Assembly: GCA_001774945.1 (NCBI GenBank)
Contig: MFBL01000015.1
Location: 529 to 64,528 of the forward strand
Reading direction: 5' to 3'
Length of the DNA stretch: 64,000 nt
Source of the DNA: Candidatus Curtissbacteria bacterium RIFCSPHIGHO2_12_FULL_41_17
Lineage (GTDB): Bacteria > Patescibacteriota > Microgenomatia > Curtissbacterales > GWA2-41-24
The translations under genes and the position numbers were made by a program. Of the stretch, positions 2,947-58,835 are shown in pieces. Every line of letters starts with the position of its first letter. Within the stretch, counting starts at the first letter, position 1. The notes under the pieces were generated by a model. The model was given only the letters and a program-made list of their open reading frames with translations, was not told the origin of the DNA and ran no database searches.

Positions 2947-4266
2947 ATGGCAATACAGGCAAGAACAGAATTTGCGTCAGCTTTAAATCAGGTTTGCTCC
3001 GAACGGGGAGTCGAACCGGAAGTGGTAATTGATTCTATAAAACAGGCGATTTTAGCGGCTTACCGAAAAGATTATGGCGATCCTGAAGGGATCGATGTCG
3101 ATCTTAATTCGGAAACAGGCGAAGTTGCTCTTTCAAAAGGCAAGAAAAAAATCACGCCTTCAGGTTTTGGTAGAATCGCCGCTCAAACTGCCAAGCAGGT
3201 TATTTTGCAAAGAATTAGGGAAGCCGAAAAAAATGCCATCCTTTCCGAATATTCCTCAAAAATTAATACAGTTGTTTCGGGCATTATCCAGCGAATTTCC
3301 GGCCCCATTATTACTGTTAATTTAGGTAAAACAGAAGGAATTATGCCGCCGCAAGAGCAAGCCCACAACGAAAAGTATGTCCTCAATCAAAGGATGAAAT
3401 TTTACGTTGTGGGTATTAAAGAAGGCGCAAGAGGTGAAGAAATAATAGTTTCAAGAAGCGCCCCCGGGCTTTTAGAGGGACTTTTCAGACAAGAAGTTCC
3501 TGAAATTTCAGCAGGTAGCGTCGAAATCAAGGTAGTGGCCAGAGAAGCCGGTTCCAGATCAAAAATCGCCGTTTATTCTTCTCAACTGGGGGTGGATCCG
3601 GTTGGATCTTGCGTTGGGCAAAAAGGGGTTAGAGTACAAGCGGTAATTAACGAACTTTCAGATGAGAAAATTGACGTTATTGCTTACCAGGAAGACCCAG
3701 TTGAATTTATAAAGGCAGCCCTTTCACCGGCGAAAGAATTAAATGTCACAATAAATGAGAAAGAAAAAACAGCCCTTGTCATTGCCCCTGATGATCAACT
3801 TTCACTGGCAATCGGTAAAGAAGGCCAGAATGTCAGGCTGGCCGCAAAGTTAACAGGTTGCAAAATTGATATTCGGGGTAAAAGCGGAACCCCGAAAGAA
3901 GTTGAGGCTAAAGAAAAAGCGGCACAAGAAGAAGCAAAGAAAGCCTTAGGGGTGATCGAAAAAATTGAGGCCAAGGAAGCGAAAACTCAGCCTGAAGACA
4001 AACAGGCCCAAATCCCAGGTCAACAGCCTCAAACTCCCGTTGATGATCAAGCCAAAGCTAAAGGAAGTAAAGTGGAAGACTCAGACGATGAAAAGGTTAC
4101 CAAGCAGGAAACACCTCAGGGCCAGATTAAAGAAGAATCAGTTACTAAGCCGATCAAAAAAAAGGCAACAGCCAGTCAATCTGAGACAGAAAACCCCACT
4201 CCAGAGCAAAAGGTCAATCCGCCCCGCCAGCTAGCGAACCAGACGGCGAAAAAACTACTTAAATGA
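2947..4266 (+). CDS. nusA: transcription termination/antitermination factor NusA with long K/E/Q-rich C-terminal tail
   Basis: MAIQARTEFASALNQVCSERGV.. N-terminus, with S1 and KH regions (GSCVGQKGVRVQAV, LAIGKEGQNVRLAAKLTG). The ATG at 2947 follows AGAGG. The ORF-track start at 2908 lies inside the upstream repeat array. Confidence 0.9.
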   Translation: MAIQARTEFASALNQVCSERGVEPEVVIDSIKQAILAAYRKDYGDPEGIDVDLNSETGEVALSKGKKKITPSGFGRIAAQTAKQVILQRIREAEKNAILSEYSSKINTVVSGIIQRISGPIITVNLGKTEGIMPPQEQAHNEKYVLNQRMKFYVVGIKEGARGEEIIVSRSAPGLLEGLFRQEVPEISAGSVEIKVVAREAGSRSKIAVYSSQLGVDPVGSCVGQKGVRVQAVINELSDEKIDVIAYQEDPVEFIKAALSPAKELNVTINEKEKTALVIAPDDQLSLAIGKEGQNVRLAAKLTGCKIDIRGKSGTPKEVEAKEKAAQEEAKKALGVIEKIEAKEAKTQPEDKQAQIPGQQPQTPVDDQAKAKGSKVEDSDDEKVTKQETPQGQIKEESVTKPIKKKATASQSETENPTPEQKVNPPRQLANQTAKKLLK

Positions 4267-6759: not shown

Positions 6760-7023
6760 ATGAGCGATACATCAAAAAAGCAAGTAATAGATAAATTTAA
6801 AACGCACGAGGGCGATACAGGATCTCCGGAAGTCCAGATTGCCTTACTTTCCCAAAGAATCGAGAAGGTTAAGGATCATTTAAAATCACACGGACATGAT
6901 AATCATTCACGAAGGGGTTTGCTTTCTATGATAAATAAACGTAGAAGACTTCTCCACTATTTAACGAGAAAGGCAGAGGATAGATATAAGGATATTATCG
7001 GTAAGCTTGGCTTACCCCAATAA
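6760..7023 (+). CDS. rpsO: 30S ribosomal protein S15
   Basis: GDTGSPEVQIALLSQRIEKVKDHLKSHGHDNHSRRGLLSMINKRRRLLHYL is a typical S15 sequence. Immediately upstream of pnp. Confidence 0.95.
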   Translation: MSDTSKKQVIDKFKTHEGDTGSPEVQIALLSQRIEKVKDHLKSHGHDNHSRRGLLSMINKRRRLLHYLTRKAEDRYKDIIGKLGLPQ

Positions 7024-7245
7024 TATCCTTGCGGTGCTCGCTCAGTAACACTGAGCTGCGCGCCTAAAAGATATTATTGGTAAGTTAGGACTGCCAAAAT
7101 AGAAATAAGCAGCGCTTGCTATTTATCTATTATTGACTTAAAATATAACAGGGAATTGGGTTGTTGGAAGTTGAATAGTTCGAATCAATTTTTTTGATTC
7201 TCACTATCCGATTTCTAACTCCCGTAAATTCTCCAAGAATTTATA

Positions 7246-25430: not shown

Positions 25431-25718
25431 ATGACTCGAATAGTAATTAAGGAACTAATTTGGAATAAGCGGAACCTTGAGCATATCAAGAAGCATAATG
25501 TCACCGTTGATGAGGTAGAAAGTATAGCTAGAAAAATAGTAGTTCACAAAAAAGCCAAGCAAGGAAGATACTCAATTGTTGGTAGAGTTGGTTCAAGAAT
25601 TATAACAGTGATTATTAACAGAATCGGGCCAGGGATTTATTATCCAGTGACAGCAAGAGATGCAGCTAAGAAAGAAAGGAAGCGCATATATGAAAAAGAA
25701 AAAAAGCAAATTTCCTGA
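25431..25718 (+). CDS. brnT: BrnT-like (DUF497) type II toxin
   Basis: 95 aa. ELIWNKRNLEHIKKHNVTVDEVESI ... ITVIINRIG...YPVTARDAAKKERKRY matches the BrnT pattern. Overlaps the downstream antitoxin gene. Confidence 0.7.
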   Translation: MTRIVIKELIWNKRNLEHIKKHNVTVDEVESIARKIVVHKKAKQGRYSIVGRVGSRIITVIINRIGPGIYYPVTARDAAKKERKRIYEKEKKQIS

Positions 25719-25971
25719 TTTTAATAAGATGACATATGAAAAAGAGGCAAAGTGGTGGGATACCCACGATTTGGGAGACTATTGGGACGAAATGGAGGAT
25801 GTTGAGATAGTGTTCGATCTCAAAAAGCCTCGCGATGAGACTCTTATTGTGCGTCTTCAAAAAGAACTCAAGGATAGACTAGAACGTGTAGCAAGAAGTC
25901 GAGGGTTAAACATGTCCACCCTAGCCCGCATGTGGCTGATTGAGAAACTTCGTCAGACTCAATCCAAATAA
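25690..25971 (+). CDS. brnA: BrnA-like CopG/RHH antitoxin
   Basis: EAKWWDTHDLGDYWDEMEDVEIVF, plus a C-terminal RHH-like segment IVRLQKELKDRLERVARSRGLNMSTLARMWLIEKL. The ATG at 25690 is preceded by AAGGAAG. Confidence 0.7.
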   Translation: MKKKKSKFPDFNKMTYEKEAKWWDTHDLGDYWDEMEDVEIVFDLKKPRDETLIVRLQKELKDRLERVARSRGLNMSTLARMWLIEKLRQTQSK

Positions 25972-26135: not shown

Positions 26136-27239
26136 TTGAATATCCCAGTGAATAAAATACTCCAAATCGGTCCACCCTTTATTATTATCGCCGCACTACT
26201 TTGGAGTCTTGACGGACTTTTAAGAAGAAGCCTTTTTGTGTTACCCCCGGCTCTTATTGTGTTTTGGGAACATGTTTTAGGTGCAGTTATATTAATACCA
26301 TTTGTCCTTTTTTTAGGTCTGAAACTAGGCAAAATGACCAAGAAAGAATGGCTGGCAATTGTTTTTGTAAGCCTTTTCTCTGGAGCCCTCGGAACTATTT
26401 TTTATACGGCGGCTCTTGGTAAAGTTAATTATATCCAGTTTTCGGTTGTAGCTATGCTGCAGCAGCTTCAGCCAATCTGGACCATTACAACCGCAGCTAT
26501 TATCCTAAAAGAAAAATTGACAGGCAATTTTTTAAGGTGGGCAGCATTGGCACTTATTGCTTCTTATTTTGTTACCTTTAGGGATTTAAAAGTTAATCTT
26601 GAAAGCGGCAGCCAAACAATAGTTGCTGCAGGATTTGCTCTTGCGGCTGGGATGATGTGGGGTTCATCAACCGCATTTTCCAAAGTGGTCTTAAAGCAAG
26701 TTTCGTTTATAACGGCCACTTTTTTAAGGTTTATGGCATTGGCACTTATTGCTTCTTATTTTGTTACCTTTAGGGATTTAAAAGTTAATCTTGAAAGCGG
26801 CAGCCAAACAATAGTTGCTGCAGGATTTGCTCTTGCGGCTGGGATGATGTGGGGTTCATCAACCGCATTTTCCAAAGTGGTCTTAAAGCAAGTTTCGTTT
26901 ATAACGGCCACTTTTTTAAGGTTTATGATAGCACCTATATTTGCCCTGCTTTTTTTAGTTGGTTCAAATAAGGGCAGCAGTCTTTTTGCAATCACATTGC
27001 CTCAGGCATTTACACTGCTTGTTATTACTCTCACAACCGGAATGGTTGCTCTTCTTATTTATTATTTTGGCTTAAAAAAAACACCGGCTAGAGTTAGCAC
27101 AATTTTAGAACTTGTCTGGCCTGCTTCGGCAATTTTTATTGACTATGTTTATTTCAAAAAAACTTTATCGACGACTCAGCTGTTGGGGGTTTTTGTATTA
27201 CTTTTTGCAATTTACCAAGTGTCTAAATTCAAAAAGTGA
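26136..27239 (+). CDS. EamA/DMT-family transporter carrying an internal 64-aa tandem duplication
   Basis: Polytopic membrane protein with EamA-like repeats. The segment ALALIASYFVTF...ATFLRFM occurs twice, identically. Confidence 0.8.
   Translation: MNIPVNKILQIGPPFIIIAALLWSLDGLLRRSLFVLPPALIVFWEHVLGAVILIPFVLFLGLKLGKMTKKEWLAIVFVSLFSGALGTIFYTAALGKVNYIQFSVVAMLQQLQPIWTITTAAIILKEKLTGNFLRWAALALIASYFVTFRDLKVNLESGSQTIVAAGFALAAGMMWGSSTAFSKVVLKQVSFITATFLRFMALALIASYFVTFRDLKVNLESGSQTIVAAGFALAAGMMWGSSTAFSKVVLKQVSFITATFLRFMIAPIFALLFLVGSNKGSSLFAITLPQAFTLLVITLTTGMVALLIYYFGLKKTPARVSTILELVWPASAIFIDYVYFKKTLSTTQLLGVFVLLFAIYQVSKFKK
26544..26927 (+). repeat. perfect 2 x 192-bp in-frame tandem duplication inside the DMT gene
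   Basis: 26544-26735 equals 26736-26927 base for base. The junctions share the microhomology TTTTTTAAGGT (26528, 26720, 26912). Confidence 0.9.
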
Positions 27240-34833: not shown

Positions 34834-34861
34834 GCGGACAATTATATCAGAGGAGCGTACT

Positions 34862-35408: not shown

Positions 35409-35906
35409 ATGCCCAGAGCAGGAAAGGTAGAAAAAAAACAAATTGCTCCGGATCCCCTTTACCAAAGTTCGCTTGTTGCTAAACTAATCAATAAAGTAAT
35501 GGTCAGCGGCAATAAGTCTCTCGCCCAGAGAGTAGTTTATGATGCGCTCGAAAGTTTAAAATCTGGCGGGCAAGATCCAGTCAAAACCCTAGATAAGGCA
35601 GTTGAGAATATTACGCCAAGAATGGAGGTTAGACCAAGAAGGGTTGGCGGTGCATCTTATATGGTTCCCATGGAAGTCAGGGGATCAAGACGGCTTTCAT
35701 TGGCAATTTCATGGCTGGTTAATGCCGCCAGAAGCAGGAAAGCTTCGGACATTACTCCCAAACCTAAGAATAAGCCCTTAATTATTGCCAAGTTGTCCCA
35801 AGAAATACTGCAAGCATCAGAGAATACCGGCAAGGCAGTCGCCAAAAAAGACGAAATGCACCGCATAGCCGAAGCGAACAAAGCTTTCGCCCATTTCAGA
35901 TGGTAA
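35409..35906 (+). CDS. rpsG: 30S ribosomal protein S7
   Basis: MPRAGKVEKKQIAPDPLYQS.LVAKLINKVM..GNKS and ...ANKAFAHFRW. The ATG at 35409 is preceded by AAGGGAGC. The ORF-track start at 35223 lies inside rpsL. Confidence 0.95.
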   Translation: MPRAGKVEKKQIAPDPLYQSSLVAKLINKVMVSGNKSLAQRVVYDALESLKSGGQDPVKTLDKAVENITPRMEVRPRRVGGASYMVPMEVRGSRRLSLAISWLVNAARSRKASDITPKPKNKPLIIAKLSQEILQASENTGKAVAKKDEMHRIAEANKAFAHFRW

Positions 35907-36117
35907 GCCGGAGTTTACACTGAGCTTGTCGAAGTGCGCATTCCCGCTGGTAATGTGCTCAGCCTTGCGGTCCTCGTCCTTCGTTAAACTCAGGACTGCG
36001 GGCCTAAAAGCTTTCGCCCACTTCCGCTGGTAGCGAAATGTGGTTTGCCGCCTTGCGATAGCTCCGCACTACGCGCGTAGTAGCTATCTAAAGGCGTTTG
36101 CACATTTCCGGTGGTAA
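35907..36117 (+). repeat. array of displaced rpsG 3'-end copies separated by GC-rich palindromic inserts
   Basis: KAFAHFRW-stop is re-encoded at 36007-36033 and 36091-36117 with synonymous differences only. A degenerate copy (AHSRW-stop) lies at 35936-35953. Confidence 0.85.
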
Positions 36118-36122
36118 TTTCC

Positions 36123-37067
36123 CTACAACGAGAATAAATCTAGCACTTGCTTTTTTCCTGTCATGGCTAAATCAAATATCTTTTCCCGATCTTGGGAAAT
36201 TCTTGAGATGGGCATCTCGGAAGGAGCAATAATCCCAATATTTATTGAATCTCCATGCAATCCAATTAGCTCTGCCGCTCGCGAATATTGTTTATGTCTT
36301 GCTAACATAGCAGTTCTAAATTCGGAGGAAAACTTACGCATATATACACTTGTAAGTAAACGTTCTAATAAACTGGCCCCATTTGCTCGCTCGCCTACAG
36401 TATTATTCAAAACCACCAATATATCTGTACACCCTTCCTGTATTGCTAAATCGATTGGAATACCATTCCCTATAGAACCATCACTGTACTTTTTTCCATT
36501 AATACTTATGGTACGGTTATAAACAATAGGAAATGCCGAGGAAGCGATGACTACTTTGACAATATCACACTCCTCTTTCACATCTATAAACTCACTTTTG
36601 CCCGTTTGGGCATCCGTAACGACAATAAAAAAACTCGAACGGGATGACCTAATTGTTTCCTGATCAAGCGGTTTTGTCTTTCGCATTATGTGTTCAGCAT
36701 AATCAAGGTCTAAAACACGCCTTAGACGCCTAACATCGATGAATCTTCTGTCCACTAAATCTTCATGCCAAAGCGAAGCTCCTAACTCTGTCTGTTTAGC
36801 AAGAAAATAAGCAAGGTCAGCAGCCCCAGACGAAACACCGACAACAACATCAAAAGTGTCATGGAAACCCAATTGTTCTAGGCCAACAAGTACTCCGGCA
36901 CCAAATGCTCCACGCACCCCACCGCCACCCATTACTAATGCGGTTTTAATCCTCTCGTGTGTATTGTCACCTTGATCAAGCAGTCTCTTTTTCTCAAGTA
37001 AATTTCTCACGAGCGTTGAATTTCTCGCTGATTCACCTTCTAAAACTTTGGAGCGTAATCTTTCCAT
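36123..37067 (-). CDS. patatin-like phospholipase
   Basis: Oxyanion motif GGGGVRGAFGAGVL, nucleophile elbow GVSSGA (GxSxG), and the catalytic Asp context DGSIGNGIP. Confidence 0.85.
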   Translation of the reverse strand: MERLRSKVLEGESARNSTLVRNLLEKKRLLDQGDNTHERIKTALVMGGGGVRGAFGAGVLVGLEQLGFHDTFDVVVGVSSGAADLAYFLAKQTELGASLWHEDLVDRRFIDVRRLRRVLDLDYAEHIMRKTKPLDQETIRSSRSSFFIVVTDAQTGKSEFIDVKEECDIVKVVIASSAFPIVYNRTISINGKKYSDGSIGNGIPIDLAIQEGCTDILVVLNNTVGERANGASLLERLLTSVYMRKFSSEFRTAMLARHKQYSRAAELIGLHGDSINIGIIAPSEMPISRISQDREKIFDLAMTGKKQVLDLFSL

Positions 37068-41505: not shown

Positions 41506-41545
41506 GAGATTTGGGTCTCCTCAGAGCTTGCCAGAAGGCCGTAGG

Positions 41546-41576
41546 CCCTGAGCTTGCGAAGGGGGGATTTTTTTTG
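41546..41576 (+). terminator. candidate intrinsic terminator after tuf, built from a CCTGAGC..CGAAGGGG repeat
   Basis: CCCT..AGGGG stem followed by a T8 run (GGGGGGATTTTTTTT). Confidence 0.35.
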
Positions 41577-41936
41577 CTAGAATACCTTACTTTTGTCATT
41601 CTCGCGAAAGCGAGAATCCAGATTCTCAGTCAAGTCTTCGACCGTGAGTCCCAAAGAGACTCCGCTCAGACCGAATCGGCTGAGAATGACATGAGGGGGT
41701 CTTGGCGAAGGATTGTTCGAGCGAAGTCGAGAACTATTAAAGTATGTCAATAATAAGATTTTACTTCAAGCCTAACCGCTTAAGAATCTAACTTCTCAAC
41801 TCGACAATTCCGCTCGAAGATTATCAATTGCTGTCCGAAAGGAATTGTGATTTTGAATTTTGCCTGCCTGCCGGCAGGCAGGCACTTTAAATTTTACTTC
41901 TTGCGAAGCAAAACCTCGTAAGATCATTAAACGTCA

Positions 41937-57306: not shown

Positions 57307-57754
57307 CCAAATAAATAGAAACTGGCATCTTATCGATGCAAAAAGAAAAGTTTTGGGAAGACTTGCCAGTGAAGCCGCTTATCTTTTAATGGGCAAAAAT
57401 AAATCATCATATGTGCCATATCTTGATTCTGGAGATTATGTAGTGGTCATAAATGCCAAAGATGTTGTTCTGTCTGGAAAAAAAGAATTTCATAAAAAAT
57501 ACTATCATCATTCGCATTTTCCCGGAGGATTAAAAATAAAGACTGCCGCACAAATTAGGGAAGAAAATCCCCAAAAATTAATAAGAAATGCCATTACCGG
57601 AATGATGCCAAAAACAAAACTTGGCAAAATGATGCTTAAAAAACTTTTTGTCTATTCAGATAATAATTATCCTTATGCGAGCAAGTTTATAGCCACTGTC
57701 AGCACTACGCCTCAGCAACTAAAACATACCAGCTTGAAAGTTGCCAGAAAATGA
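57296..57754 (+). CDS. rplM: 50S ribosomal protein L13
   Basis: RNWHLIDAKRKVLGRLASEAAYLLMGKNK, GDYVVVINA..V..SGKK...K.YY.HS.FPGG. Confidence 0.93.
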   Translation: MKNDQINRNWHLIDAKRKVLGRLASEAAYLLMGKNKSSYVPYLDSGDYVVVINAKDVVLSGKKEFHKKYYHHSHFPGGLKIKTAAQIREENPQKLIRNAITGMMPKTKLGKMMLKKLFVYSDNNYPYASKFIATVSTTPQQLKHTSLKVARK

Positions 57755-58161
57755 AAAAGGAAAATCAAAAATCGGAGATTATTTCGGCGCATGGGCGCAG
57801 AAAAGAAGCCGTGGCCAGAGTAATGCTTTATAAGGGAGATGGGCAAATTTTGGTAAATGGACAGGCAATTAATCAATATTTCCCAAGTAAAGTTGCCAAG
57901 AGTTTATGGCAAAAGCCTTTTGTTCTGACAAAATCCCAAAATGATTACTGGGCAACCATTAAAGTTTCAGGTTCTGGAAAGAGCGGGCAACTGCTAGCGG
58001 TGGTTCATGGTTTGTCGCGGGCATTATCTAAAGCTAACTTGGAATTTAGACCGATTCTTAAAAGAGCTGGACTTTTAACAAGAGATCCCCGGGTTAAGGA
58101 AAGACGTAAATACGGCCTTGCCCAGAAGGCTAGAAAAGGTAAGCAATCACCTAGGAGGTGA
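57751..58161 (+). CDS. rpsI: 30S ribosomal protein S9
   Basis: GRRKEAVARV.L..G.G.I.VNG, V.GSGKSGQ..A...GLSRAL, LTRDPR.KERRKYG...ARK..Q.SPRR. Confidence 0.95.
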   Translation: MKKENQKSEIISAHGRRKEAVARVMLYKGDGQILVNGQAINQYFPSKVAKSLWQKPFVLTKSQNDYWATIKVSGSGKSGQLLAVVHGLSRALSKANLEFRPILKRAGLLTRDPRVKERRKYGLAQKARKGKQSPRR

Positions 58162-58180
58162 TTGCCCTGAGTCTATCGAA

Positions 58181-58201
58181 GGGCAGTCGCCCAGGCGGTA
58201 G
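58181..58201 (+). repeat. displaced second copy of the rpsI 3' end
   Basis: GGGCAGTCGCCCAGGCGGTAG encodes GQSPRR-stop. The genuine end at 58138-58161 encodes GKQSPRR-stop. The two are separated by the hairpin GCCCTGAGTCTATCGAAGGGC. Confidence 0.75.
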
Positions 58202-58258
58202 CAAGTCCTCCCAAATTCGCACCTCGAACCGTGTACGAATAGTACTGAAATTTTCCTA

Positions 58259-58432
58259 TTATTGTTGAGGTTCCGATGGCGGCGTTTGGTTTTGGCTATT
58301 AGCCGGATTTTGAGGATTCATAAATTGGCCATCACCAGATTGCGTTGGTTGATTAGCTGATTCGCTAGGTGATGTTGGCGGCGGTTGCTCTTTTTTCCCA
58401 AAAAGATTTTTGACAAGATCCAGAAAACCCAT
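58259..58432 (-). CDS. small P/Q-rich hypothetical protein
   Basis: 57-aa ORF below the track threshold, MGFLDLVKNLFGKKEQPPPTSPSESANQPTQSGDGQFMNPQNPANSQNQTPPSEPQQ. Low complexity, so coding status is uncertain. Confidence 0.3.
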   Translation of the reverse strand: MGFLDLVKNLFGKKEQPPPTSPSESANQPTQSGDGQFMNPQNPANSQNQTPPSEPQQ

Positions 58433-58554: not shown

Positions 58555-58835
58555 TAAGTATTCGGTAATACATCAGACAAAGTGCTGATATACTCCGTTC
58601 GTCGAAATAAGCAAAGCTTGCGATCCTCGACTTCGTCCACGGGTCTAGGACTTCGCTTTAACGTTAACATACCATTTGGTACACGACTTTTTCGCTTAGT
58701 CATTCCTCCTCTTCAAATGCTAAAGCATTTGATTATAACTCCACAGAAAATTCTTGAATATTTTATCACCTCTTGTAATTTTGGCAAATCTGTAGTAAAA
58801 CTAGTCGTGAAAATAACTGCTTTAAACAAAGTTTG

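Follow-up and report, generated by a model that had tools for sequence, protein, structure and literature searches.

Hairpin cassettes and recoded copies of gene ends in Candidatus Curtissbacteria

The ribosomal protein gene rpsI, carried on a stretch of 64,000 nucleotides (nt) from Candidatus Curtissbacteria bacterium RIFCSPHIGHO2_12_FULL_41_17 (contig MFBL01000015.1; the whole stretch is called the window here), is followed by a second, differently spelled copy of its own last codons, and comparable copies lie behind other conserved genes of the window and of related genomes. The rpsI tail duplication and its recurrence are real and non-random. Copies distal to the gene decay, a cassette with sharp edges is shared horizontally, and one element type occurs at two different genes. 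With a probability that we put at roughly 0.55, these arrangements reflect hairpin cassettes devoid of any open reading frame (ORF), each with a recoded gene end, that are inserted or exchanged horizontally and leave stranded tails to decay as relics.

Recurrence, recoding, and sharing of duplicated gene ends

The rpsI gene encodes ribosomal protein S9 (136 amino acids, aa; 57751-58161 on the + strand in the ORF list, with PF00380 Ribosomal_S9 on record for an identical protein) and is the last of the + strand run rpsK-rpsD-rpoA-rplQ-rplM-rpsI. Its product is identical to the S9 protein of bin RIFCSPHIGHO2_02_FULL_40_17. The in-frame gene end, tail 1, reads GGT AAG CAA TCA CCT AGG AGG TGA (GKQSPRR-stop, 58138-58161) and is separated by the 19-nt spacer TTGCCCTGAGTCTATCGAA (58162-58180) from tail 2, GGG CAG TCG CCC AGG CGG TAG (GQSPRR-stop, 58181-58201, + strand), which lies in the +1 frame, out of frame with rpsI. 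The original prediction, made from the letters alone, had described an S9 tail duplicated around a 19-nt spacer with a CCTGAG..TCGAAGG hairpin, and the sequence is exactly as it claimed. Its statement that the four nucleotide differences across the QSPRR codons (CAA/CAG, TCA/TCG, CCT/CCC, AGG/CGG) are all synonymous is likewise correct (4/4), as is the difference in stop codon, TGA in tail 1 and TAG in tail 2. The longest run shared by tail 1 (GCAATCACCTAGGAGGTGA) and tail 2 (GCAGTCGCCCAGGCGGTAG) is 3 nt. All six codons of tail 2 end in G or C and all are minor in this genome, where G+C at third codon positions is 34%, so tail 2 is not host-like; we interpret it as a stranded, untranslated relic of an S9 tail.

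Within the window, a scan for the last residues and stop codon of any ORF re-encoded within a few hundred bases downstream flags three ribosomal protein genes: rpsI, rpsO (one extra tail), and rpsG (three extra tails). A further match at 26756-26995 was rejected as a tail copy, being an unrelated perfect tandem repeat. Related loci and genomes compared with the window carry L-numbers as labels (e.g. L043). An exact scan for five matching aa plus a stop within 400 nt downstream of an ORF, applied to 505 kb of relatives and the window, returned 12 matches with one unrelated tandem repeat left out, against 0.25 for permuted tails. A looser scan (6 of 8 aa plus stop) of 929 kb of Candidatus Curtissbacteria DNA returned about 60 matches, counting redundant loci, where permuted tails gave an expectation of 0.1. 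These permuted-tail controls (0.1-0.25 expected) rule out chance as the cause.

In Candidatus Curtissbacteria, tails are re-encoded at rpsI, rpsG, rpoC, fusA, and rpsJ. One or two extra S9 tails are present in 9 of 30 other species-level genomes, the count over rpsI loci being 10 of 31, and about a quarter of the rpsG loci on metagenome contigs have 1-4 extra tails of the encoded protein S7 (~11 non-redundant loci). There are also six rpoC cases (15-16 codons), two or three at fusA, and one at rpsJ (20 codons). The frequency is high, at 25-35% of genomes, with stacks of up to 4-5 tails. Beyond what the original prediction covered, the phenomenon is tied neither to one hairpin type nor to rpsI, since it extends to rpsO and rpsG in the window and to rpoC, fusA, and rpsJ in relatives. 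An assembly artefact is ruled out by independent assemblies: nine same-species rpsI contigs from different samples and sources have an identical rpsI module, and three same-species rpsO contigs from other assemblies have an identical rpsO module.

The copies are recoded rather than merely repeated. Comparing 39 non-redundant tail/copy pairs codon by codon gave 114 identical codons, 205 synonymous differences, and 22 nonsynonymous ones, with a nucleotide divergence of 28%; random changes would be expected to be 79% nonsynonymous. The stop codon differs in 29 of the 39 pairs, and codon switches include Ser TCN/AGY, Arg AGR/CGN, and Leu TTA/CTC. The similarity of the copies is at the protein level, not the DNA level, which implies that each copy was recently a working gene end. 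The repeats are of variable length (18-60 nt) and end exactly at the stop codon.

Nonsense, missense, and frameshift damage is confined to distal copies. The distal rpoC copy of L043 carries GAA -> TAA, a change not seen in the otherwise identical L045, and other distal copies show W -> stop (L074), the S9 ending QSSKC (L106), or R -> G (L008). The distal copies no longer work. Programmed frameshifting or read-through into tail 2 was considered and rejected: the frames of the copies vary (offsets modulo 3 of 0, 1, or 2) and the spacers hold stops.

Horizontal sharing is seen at rpoC, where the gene bodies of L043 and its sister L069 are 89-92% identical. The only rpoC tail of L069 matches the distal tail of L043 at 44/49 positions and its proximal tail at 34/52. 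Between L043 and the more diverged L072, the proximal tail, its complement, and the following hairpin (Type E) are 81/85 (95%) identical, while the gene bodies are only 76-82% identical and the distal tails match at 36/49 positions; this discrepancy between module and gene body points to horizontal sharing of the module. Its flanks are 73-82% identical between genomes, and its edges are sharp, falling between GTCAT and TATCGG on one side and between CTGATAT and AATTGG on the other. By these alignments, a unit of new tail, stop, complement, and hairpin is shared horizontally and lies upstream of the resident tail, which decays. As a separate observation, two rpoC tail spellings, GGC CGC TTA ATT CCT.. 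and GGA AGG CTN ATA CCA.., occur in opposite order in L056 (4188-4360) and L062 (4230-4390); each spelling precedes a complement of itself, and the hairpin that separates the two is of the same type.

At rpsG, L043 and L069 are ~98-99% identical over ~110-140 nt directly 5' of the tail, and then differ at 8 of 33 tail positions, all synonymously; the proximal tail of L069 resembles the middle tail of L043. In L073, L074, and L075 the conserved downstream DNA always begins right after the most distal stop. Incoming DNA likely restores the rpsG end, with the resident end being displaced. Arrays expand and contract, as seen in L015 versus L018 and among L073, L074, and L075; L018 resembles L015 after loss of one unit, the junction falling within CGAAGG-RCAA, a short repeat.

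A mirror image exists at 5' ends. In L076 (6012-6090) and L082 (929-1040), the order is a displaced EF-G head that has an ATG of its own (MPTVKTDRLYPLDRIRN), a hairpin containing an inverted unit of the rpsI-type hairpin, and the working fusA start. The displaced and working heads differ almost entirely synonymously. Another 5' copy, in L030 (10006-10096), is a nucleotide-identical partial copy of a gene resembling NAD-dependent epimerase/dehydratase (MKILVTGGA..) upstream of that gene; it is an ordinary duplication, unlike the recoded tail copies.

The closest relatives at rpsI share one end and differ in the next. The rpsI 3' parts of L105 and L106 are 86-95% identical to that of the window, and the three have in common tail 1 (21/21 and 20/21) and the start of the hairpin behind it. 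After this shared hairpin come three different second tails: CAG TCG CCC AGG CGG TAG in the window, followed by a further element (Type B); CAG AGT CCA AGG CGA TAA in L105; and, after further hairpins, a decayed CAA AGT TCT AAA TGT TAA in L106. The second tails of the window and L105 differ at 6/18 positions, all synonymously. L001 (75% protein identity), the closest relative free of the module, has only a short spacer between the rpsI stop and the same convergent ORF. L105 alone also carries, 1.5 kb downstream of its rpsI module (3924-4178, - strand), a free-standing gene for an 84-aa GIY-YIG-domain protein.

Hairpin families and layout of the gene ends

A hairpin is always present between tail copies, and at least five types (A-E) were distinguished. 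A reverse complement of part of the tail usually lies around or just after each stop, giving the order tail, stop, complement, hairpin, tail, and nested palindromes are often found within the hairpin loops. Type A, the hairpin of the rpsI spacer, has the consensus CCTGAG-N4-5-(T)CGAAGG with covarying closing stems (TCC/GGA 10, CCC/GGG 9, CAC/GTG 3). The window holds two exact and six looser copies of CCTGAG..TCGAAGG, with 0 and 0.67 expected. The de-duplicated loci and the window together yield 38 core matches: 30 share the strand of the main genes, 35 are not inside a long ORF of the same strand, and 14 follow a stop within 40 nt. The CCTGAG..TCGAAGG hairpins form a genuine repeat family. The original prediction had proposed checking whether such hairpins after stops are followed by re-encoded gene ends, and 6 of those 14 are.

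Type A hairpins are also present behind stops where no tail copy follows, and the one behind tuf is accompanied by a T-run. In the window, the Type A hairpin GGCCCTGAGCTTGCGAAGGGG at 41540-41575, after tuf, is followed by T8 and looks like a terminator; a different hairpin of GNRA type, GATTCTCGC-GAAA-GCGAGAATC, follows at 41590-41625. The arrangement of Type A plus T-run recurs in L044 and L077.

Type B (~72 nt) is confined to the intervals that separate S9 tails and those that separate S7 tails, always in a single orientation. Its junction reads GGAGG followed by G(C/G)NAA, and both host genes share the 10-nt junction sequence AGGCAARCAA. Types C and D are located at rpsG and Type E at rpoC, where it separates the tail copies of relatives. 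At many loci 3' of rpoC (e.g. L040, L047, and L048), the extended -10-like box CTGATATAAT is found a short distance upstream of rpsL. The same sequence terminates the Type E hairpin on its 3' side and is similar to GTCATAATTGG, the stretch of rpoC coding sequence where the duplicated tail has its edge.

Two overlapping palindromic structures occupy the rpsI end of the window. The tail 1 palindrome, GCAATCACCT-AGG-AGGTGATTGC (58143-58165, + strand), has arms at 58143-58152 and 58156-58165 that are complementary at 10/10 positions; it spans the last codons in functional use (Q S P R R), with the TGA stop inside its 3' arm. On the minus strand it reads as a terminator-like site (58167-58141, 12 pairs, then a T-rich run), which by its sequence resembles a terminator serving tRNA-Pro and the small convergent ORF. 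No T-run follows the rpsI hairpin on the + strand, this minus-strand palindrome being the only terminator-like site. The Type A hairpin itself, GCCC-TGAG-TCTAT-CGAA-GGGC (58164-58184, + strand), has a possible tandem G.A/A.G beside its closing stem. The original prediction took it to be one small GCCC-..-GGGC hairpin of a widespread repeat type; the repeat family holds up, at 38 copies, but the hairpin is larger than supposed. Its extended stem pairs 58157-58168 with 58180-58191 over 12 positions, of which 83% are Watson-Crick and the remaining two, read by eye, are G-U. The second arm comprises the 3' side of the hairpin and the first codons of tail 2, and 58157-58165 is able to pair either upstream with tail 1 or downstream with tail 2.

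Behind tail 2 lies the 5' two-thirds of a Type B element (58203-58250, + strand; nhmmer E=1.8e-12 and alignment), which is truncated, lacking the 3' part of the element as well as the tail copy found behind it in other genomes; we interpret it as the remnant of a further cassette layer. In our reading, the rpsI end is layered: functional tail 1, Type A hairpin, tail 2 with its foreign-looking codons, truncated Type B, and a further tail now lost. A convergent 57-aa ORF follows (58259-58432, - strand) and is conserved in relatives. The ~280 nt between tRNA-Pro and recA (58556-58830) hold no convincing ORF and no Rfam match.

The rpsG (S7) end is the most elaborate in the window. The functional tail KAFAHFRW-TAA (35880-35906, + strand) is followed by the Type A hairpin CACTGAGCTTGTCGAAGTG joined to a degenerate S7 tail (35918-35953, + strand); the best-matching frame of this copy (35933-35953) is SAHSRW-TAA, and, read by eye, it has lost one base relative to intact tails. 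Next come an inverted Type A hairpin (35976-35996, CCTGAGTTTAACGAAGG on the minus strand) and a tail copy KAFAHFRW-TAG (36007-36033, + strand) with two synonymous codon differences from the functional tail. A long palindrome at 36035-36108 (+ strand), pairing 36049-63 with 36082-96 and 36035-42 with 36101-08, is built from three parts: the reverse complement of the next tail (36035-36063), the core of the Type D hairpin, and the first portion of the last tail copy. This most distal copy, KAFAHFRW-TAA (36091-36117, + strand; five synonymous codon differences), ends 5 nt short of a convergent patatin-like gene and, by analogy with L073-L075, would mark the original position of the rpsG gene end. 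The patatin-like phospholipase gene itself (36123-37067, - strand) lies between rpsG and fusA, breaking the usual rpsL-rpsG-fusA-tuf order; relatives have other genes at this position.

At rpsO (S15), the functional tail KDIIGKLGLPQ-TAA (6988-7023, + strand) bears a 14-nt inverted repeat, 6988-7001 against 7017-7030, the latter overlapping and following the stop codon. A 43-nt insert (7024-7066, + strand), made up of the tail complement and the hairpin GCTCAG-TAACA-CTGAGC, precedes the tail copy KDIIGKLGLPK-TAG (7067-7102, + strand), which has six synonymous and one nonsynonymous codon differences and AT-rich, host-like codons. The rpoC-rpsL spacer GCGGACAATTATATCAGAGGAGCGTACT (34834-34861, + strand) contains a complement of the rpoC tail and the 5' half of a Type E hairpin, and holds no tail copy.

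The tandem repeat encountered in the window scan belongs to a perfect 192-nt duplication (26544-26927, 2.0 copies, 100% identical) inside an EamA-family transporter gene (26136-27239). It adds 64 in-frame codons and could be a very recent duplication or an assembly repeat. Adjoining the EamA gene are overlapping ORFs for a BrnT-like toxin and a CopG-family antitoxin (25431-25971).

Proposed mechanism and rival explanations

In the mechanism that we favour, insertion or exchange of ORF-less cassettes of 20-130 nt would recur at the very ends of highly conserved genes in Candidatus Curtissbacteria, each cassette being joined to a complete copy of the last 5-20 codons and stop from a diverged lineage. 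Such an origin would give the tail its different synonymous codons, and because the cassette brings a complete gene end, the gene would stay intact while another tail is stranded beside it. At rpoC, the alignments show the new tail to be gene-proximal, with the resident tail pushed downstream. Stranded tails, free of selection, would gain missense, nonsense, and frameshift changes and would be removed by deletion between repeated hairpins or tails, so the visible stack would be young and turning over fast. For entry, our best guess is that incoming DNA from related lineages recombines at short shared sequence at the tail edge (AGGCAARCAA for Type B), and that breakage of the palindromic gene end, or a trans-acting nuclease, may promote this step. 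Candidates for catalysis would be a nuclease or a recombinase supplied in trans, microhomology joining, and breakage of the palindromic gene end with subsequent copying of foreign DNA. Where a cassette lies between two tails, the distal tail could serve as a right-hand homology arm in any genome with the conserved tail, on the same principle as mobile-ORF homing in mitochondria.

Applied to rpsI, this would mean that tail 2 came with the Type B cassette from a G+C-richer relative, that Type B and the tail beyond it were later truncated, and that tail 1 plus Type A form a further layer. The insert may be parsed as tail 1 plus hairpin or as hairpin plus tail 2, and the trio of window, L105, and L106 fits several histories; alternatively, tail 1 may be native, with the distal units swapped using the hairpin as left homology.

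Several points weigh against this reading. A scan of 30 non-ribosomal window ORFs turned up no domain of an integrase, transposase, or homing endonuclease, an enzyme motif search of the window was negative, with no GIY-YIG or LAGLIDADG motif, and at ~90 related loci no large or integrase-bearing element lies between the tails, the inserts all being <350 nt. The ratio of 205 synonymous to 22 nonsynonymous differences is inflated, because detection by amino-acid match under-counts decayed copies. No polymorphism between empty and filled sites was seen within the species among the nine rpsI and three rpsO contigs. The order of events at rpsI can be read in more than one way: in three close relatives the gene body runs unbroken into tail 1 and tail 2 varies, so that the trio fits stack-and-delete or exchange of distal units as well as proximal insertion. 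The evidence for horizontal transfer comes from one rpoC module and none of it from rpsI. Finally, the reverse complement of the tail at each stop is superfluous under a pure insertion model, and hints at a structural or template-switch component.

That last feature fits an account without any dedicated element, to which we assign a minor share of the probability: natural transformation with DNA of diverged relatives would be followed by homology-facilitated illegitimate recombination or template switching at the palindromic end, now and then imprecisely resolved, so that partial duplications remain where conserved genes border variable spacers, with the hairpins being terminators of their lineage. 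Imprecise recombination of incoming DNA is favoured by the fact that both tails and a head are affected, by the short similarities between hairpin 3' ends and genes (GGAGG/TGAGG, CGAAGG/AAAAGG, and CTGATATAAT/GTCATAAT), and by the terminator-like hairpins, Type A being found after stops without a tail copy and with a T-run after tuf; each tail also travels with its own complement, and recA adjoins the rpsI region in the window. A directed process is instead favoured by the sharp edges, with no co-conversion tract in the gene body, by the high frequency (25-35% of genomes, up to 4-5 tails), and by the restriction of Type B to two genes that share the 10-nt AGGCAARCAA junction; on these three counts the process looks more site-directed than random.

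Integrases typically leave attachment-site (att) direct repeats with an identical crossover core of 6 bp or more. A classical att scar, in which a kb-sized tyrosine or serine integrase element in the 3' end of rpsI brought a replacement end and was later almost wholly deleted, appears improbable here. The 3' end of rpsI is, as the original prediction noted, a documented integration target in streptococci, with tandem accretion (PMC5357655). Functional end, insert, and displaced end are arranged alike in both cases, and the tail stacks resemble accretion. Of the att-scar idea put forward in the original prediction, what survives is the stranded gene end, as when foreign DNA joins the 3' end of a gene. 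The scar of an integrase-borne island is not supported: the longest run shared between tails is 3 nt, which provides no crossover core, the rpsI insert is 19 nt, and no integrase was found either in the window ORFs scanned or, as noted, between tails at the ~90 loci. Moreover, the inserts belong to defined, recurrent hairpin families rather than being random stubs, the same process is seen at a 5' gene end, and neither the Type B core nor the Type A-plus-tail junction was found in viral contigs. A single viral-contig match to the S7 tail (L107) proved to be an ordinary rpsL-rpsG-fusA run with no tail copy.

A functional RNA device seems more doubtful still. In it, tail 1, complement, and tail 2 would pair as alternative hairpins (either 1:2 or 2:3) to sense a terminating ribosome, or to act as a terminator or stabiliser, and tail 2 would be conserved for its pairing with the complement. 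Each of the three window loci allows alternative pairings, the rpsO region is much more stably folded than its shuffles (z=-5.3), a compensatory change (AAAGC/GCTTT -> AAGGC/GCCTT) separates L073 from L074, and the rpsI differences at two positions are G-U-compatible transitions. Pairing cannot, however, account for the Ser TCA/AGT, Arg CGC/AGG, and Leu TTA/CTC switches or for the kept stop codons; the rpsI and rpsG regions fold no better than shuffles (z=-1.45 and z=-1.83), and distal tails carry disruptive mutations. The Rfam search gave only tRNA-Pro at gathering score and nothing meaningful at E up to 5, and so no RNA family for the hairpins. A switch dependent on tail 2 was discarded as the leading explanation, since the L105 tail after the same hairpin is unable to form the 2:3 stem (pairing judged by eye).

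Purely local duplication followed by divergence in place, whether by tandem inversion duplication (TID) or by a long target-site duplication of a hairpin element, is disfavoured, and we give it very little credence. The TID model developed for Salmonella invokes two template switches at palindromes, and the layout of X, inverted X', hairpin, and X would fit it, as would the nested palindromes in the hairpin loops. A non-coding copy diverging in place would, however, start out identical and accumulate mostly nonsynonymous differences (79%), against the 205 synonymous and 22 nonsynonymous observed; close relatives with 89-95% identical genes differ at a third of tail 2 positions, and the rpoC module is common to distant genomes.

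Going beyond horizontal exchange of cassettes with recoded ends, we tentatively raise the possibility, to which we give well under even odds, that the cassettes are distinct bacterial mobile elements: ORF-less homing modules for conserved gene ends, a miniature counterpart of mitochondrial mobile-ORF homing acting at both 3' and 5' ends across Candidatus Curtissbacteria. Recoding would preserve the function of the host gene and might protect an occupied site from being cut again, the old end left stranded would be a portable homology arm, and mobilisation would come from a nuclease or recombinase in trans or from breaks at the palindromic gene end. If hairpin cassettes do travel between lineages with a respelled gene end, the ends of the most conserved genes in streamlined uncultured bacteria would be active sites of exchange between lineages, and stranded tails would be a record of recent horizontal exchange in organisms that are impossible to grow. 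The last codons of ribosomal marker genes might then differ in history from the rest, calling for caution in phylogenies and strain typing, and gene callers would face stacked pseudo-ends and spurious small ORFs. It also raises a testable question, namely how a hairpin of 40-130 nt with a recoded tail enters at a precise point without an enzyme gene aboard.

Relation to known systems

Searches of the literature on the hairpin sequence and on the phenomenon in bacteria of the candidate phyla radiation found nothing relevant, and a full-text search, which most subscription-journal papers lie outside, found no description in bacteria. Known systems resemble parts of the arrangement. Intrinsic terminators combine a G+C-rich stem with a U-tract, and Type A with T8 after tuf fits this pattern, unlike the rpsI copy, which has no T-run on the + strand. 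Diversity-generating retroelements were considered and rejected: the rpsI differences are A/G, A/G, T/C, and A/C with the A's in the gene copy, which are the wrong bases and are not confined to template-repeat adenines, and no reverse-transcriptase domain was found in the window ORFs scanned.

Like repetitive extragenic palindromic (REP) sequences and bacterial interspersed mosaic elements, miniature inverted-repeat transposable elements (MITEs), and Correia-type elements, Type A is short, dispersed, and mostly intergenic, has covarying stems, and often lies just after stops. REP or MITE insertion, however, produces no duplication or a short identical one of fixed length and is not known to produce a recoded gene-end copy of 19-60 nt as found here, and Type B, unlike these elements, is not dispersed but restricted to S7 and S9 tails. 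In the 'minimal mobile elements' of Neisseria, cassettes are exchanged between conserved flanking genes by transformation, and homology-facilitated illegitimate recombination is a related route. As there, variable DNA between conserved genes is swapped among lineages with conserved coding sequence as the anchor; exchanges of the Neisseria type replace the spacer and normally leave no recoded partial copies of gene ends. To our knowledge, no stacking has been described for minimal-mobile-element exchanges.

The integrative elements at streptococcal rpsI share with the present loci the same target end, direct repeats flanking the insert, and arrivals that pile up (PMC5357655). They also restore the gene end, as incoming DNA does at rpoC and probably at rpsG; at rpsI either tail may be the older. 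They are kb long, encode an integrase, and have an identical crossover core in their repeats (PMC5357655), none of which applies here. The closest analogue is provided by the mobile-ORF gene hybrids of fungal mitochondria. In Allomyces atp6 and in Glomus atp6, atp9, cox2, and nad3, a foreign C-terminal is joined in frame and followed by a mobile insert and the stranded native C-terminal; most differences between the two C-terminals are synonymous, and horizontal transfer is given as the source of the inserted one (PMC3630166). The proximal and distal rpoC tails play these same roles, the inserted foreign C-terminal in frame and the native one stranded. Whereas a LAGLIDADG or GIY-YIG ORF of ~0.4-1 kb drives homing in the gene hybrids, the insert here is an ORF-less hairpin of 19-130 nt on a bacterial chromosome, and up to 4-5 tails are stacked, each with its reverse complement. 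The interpretation given in the original prediction is partly supported, in that tail 2 reads as the relic of a displaced gene end but not as an integrase scar.

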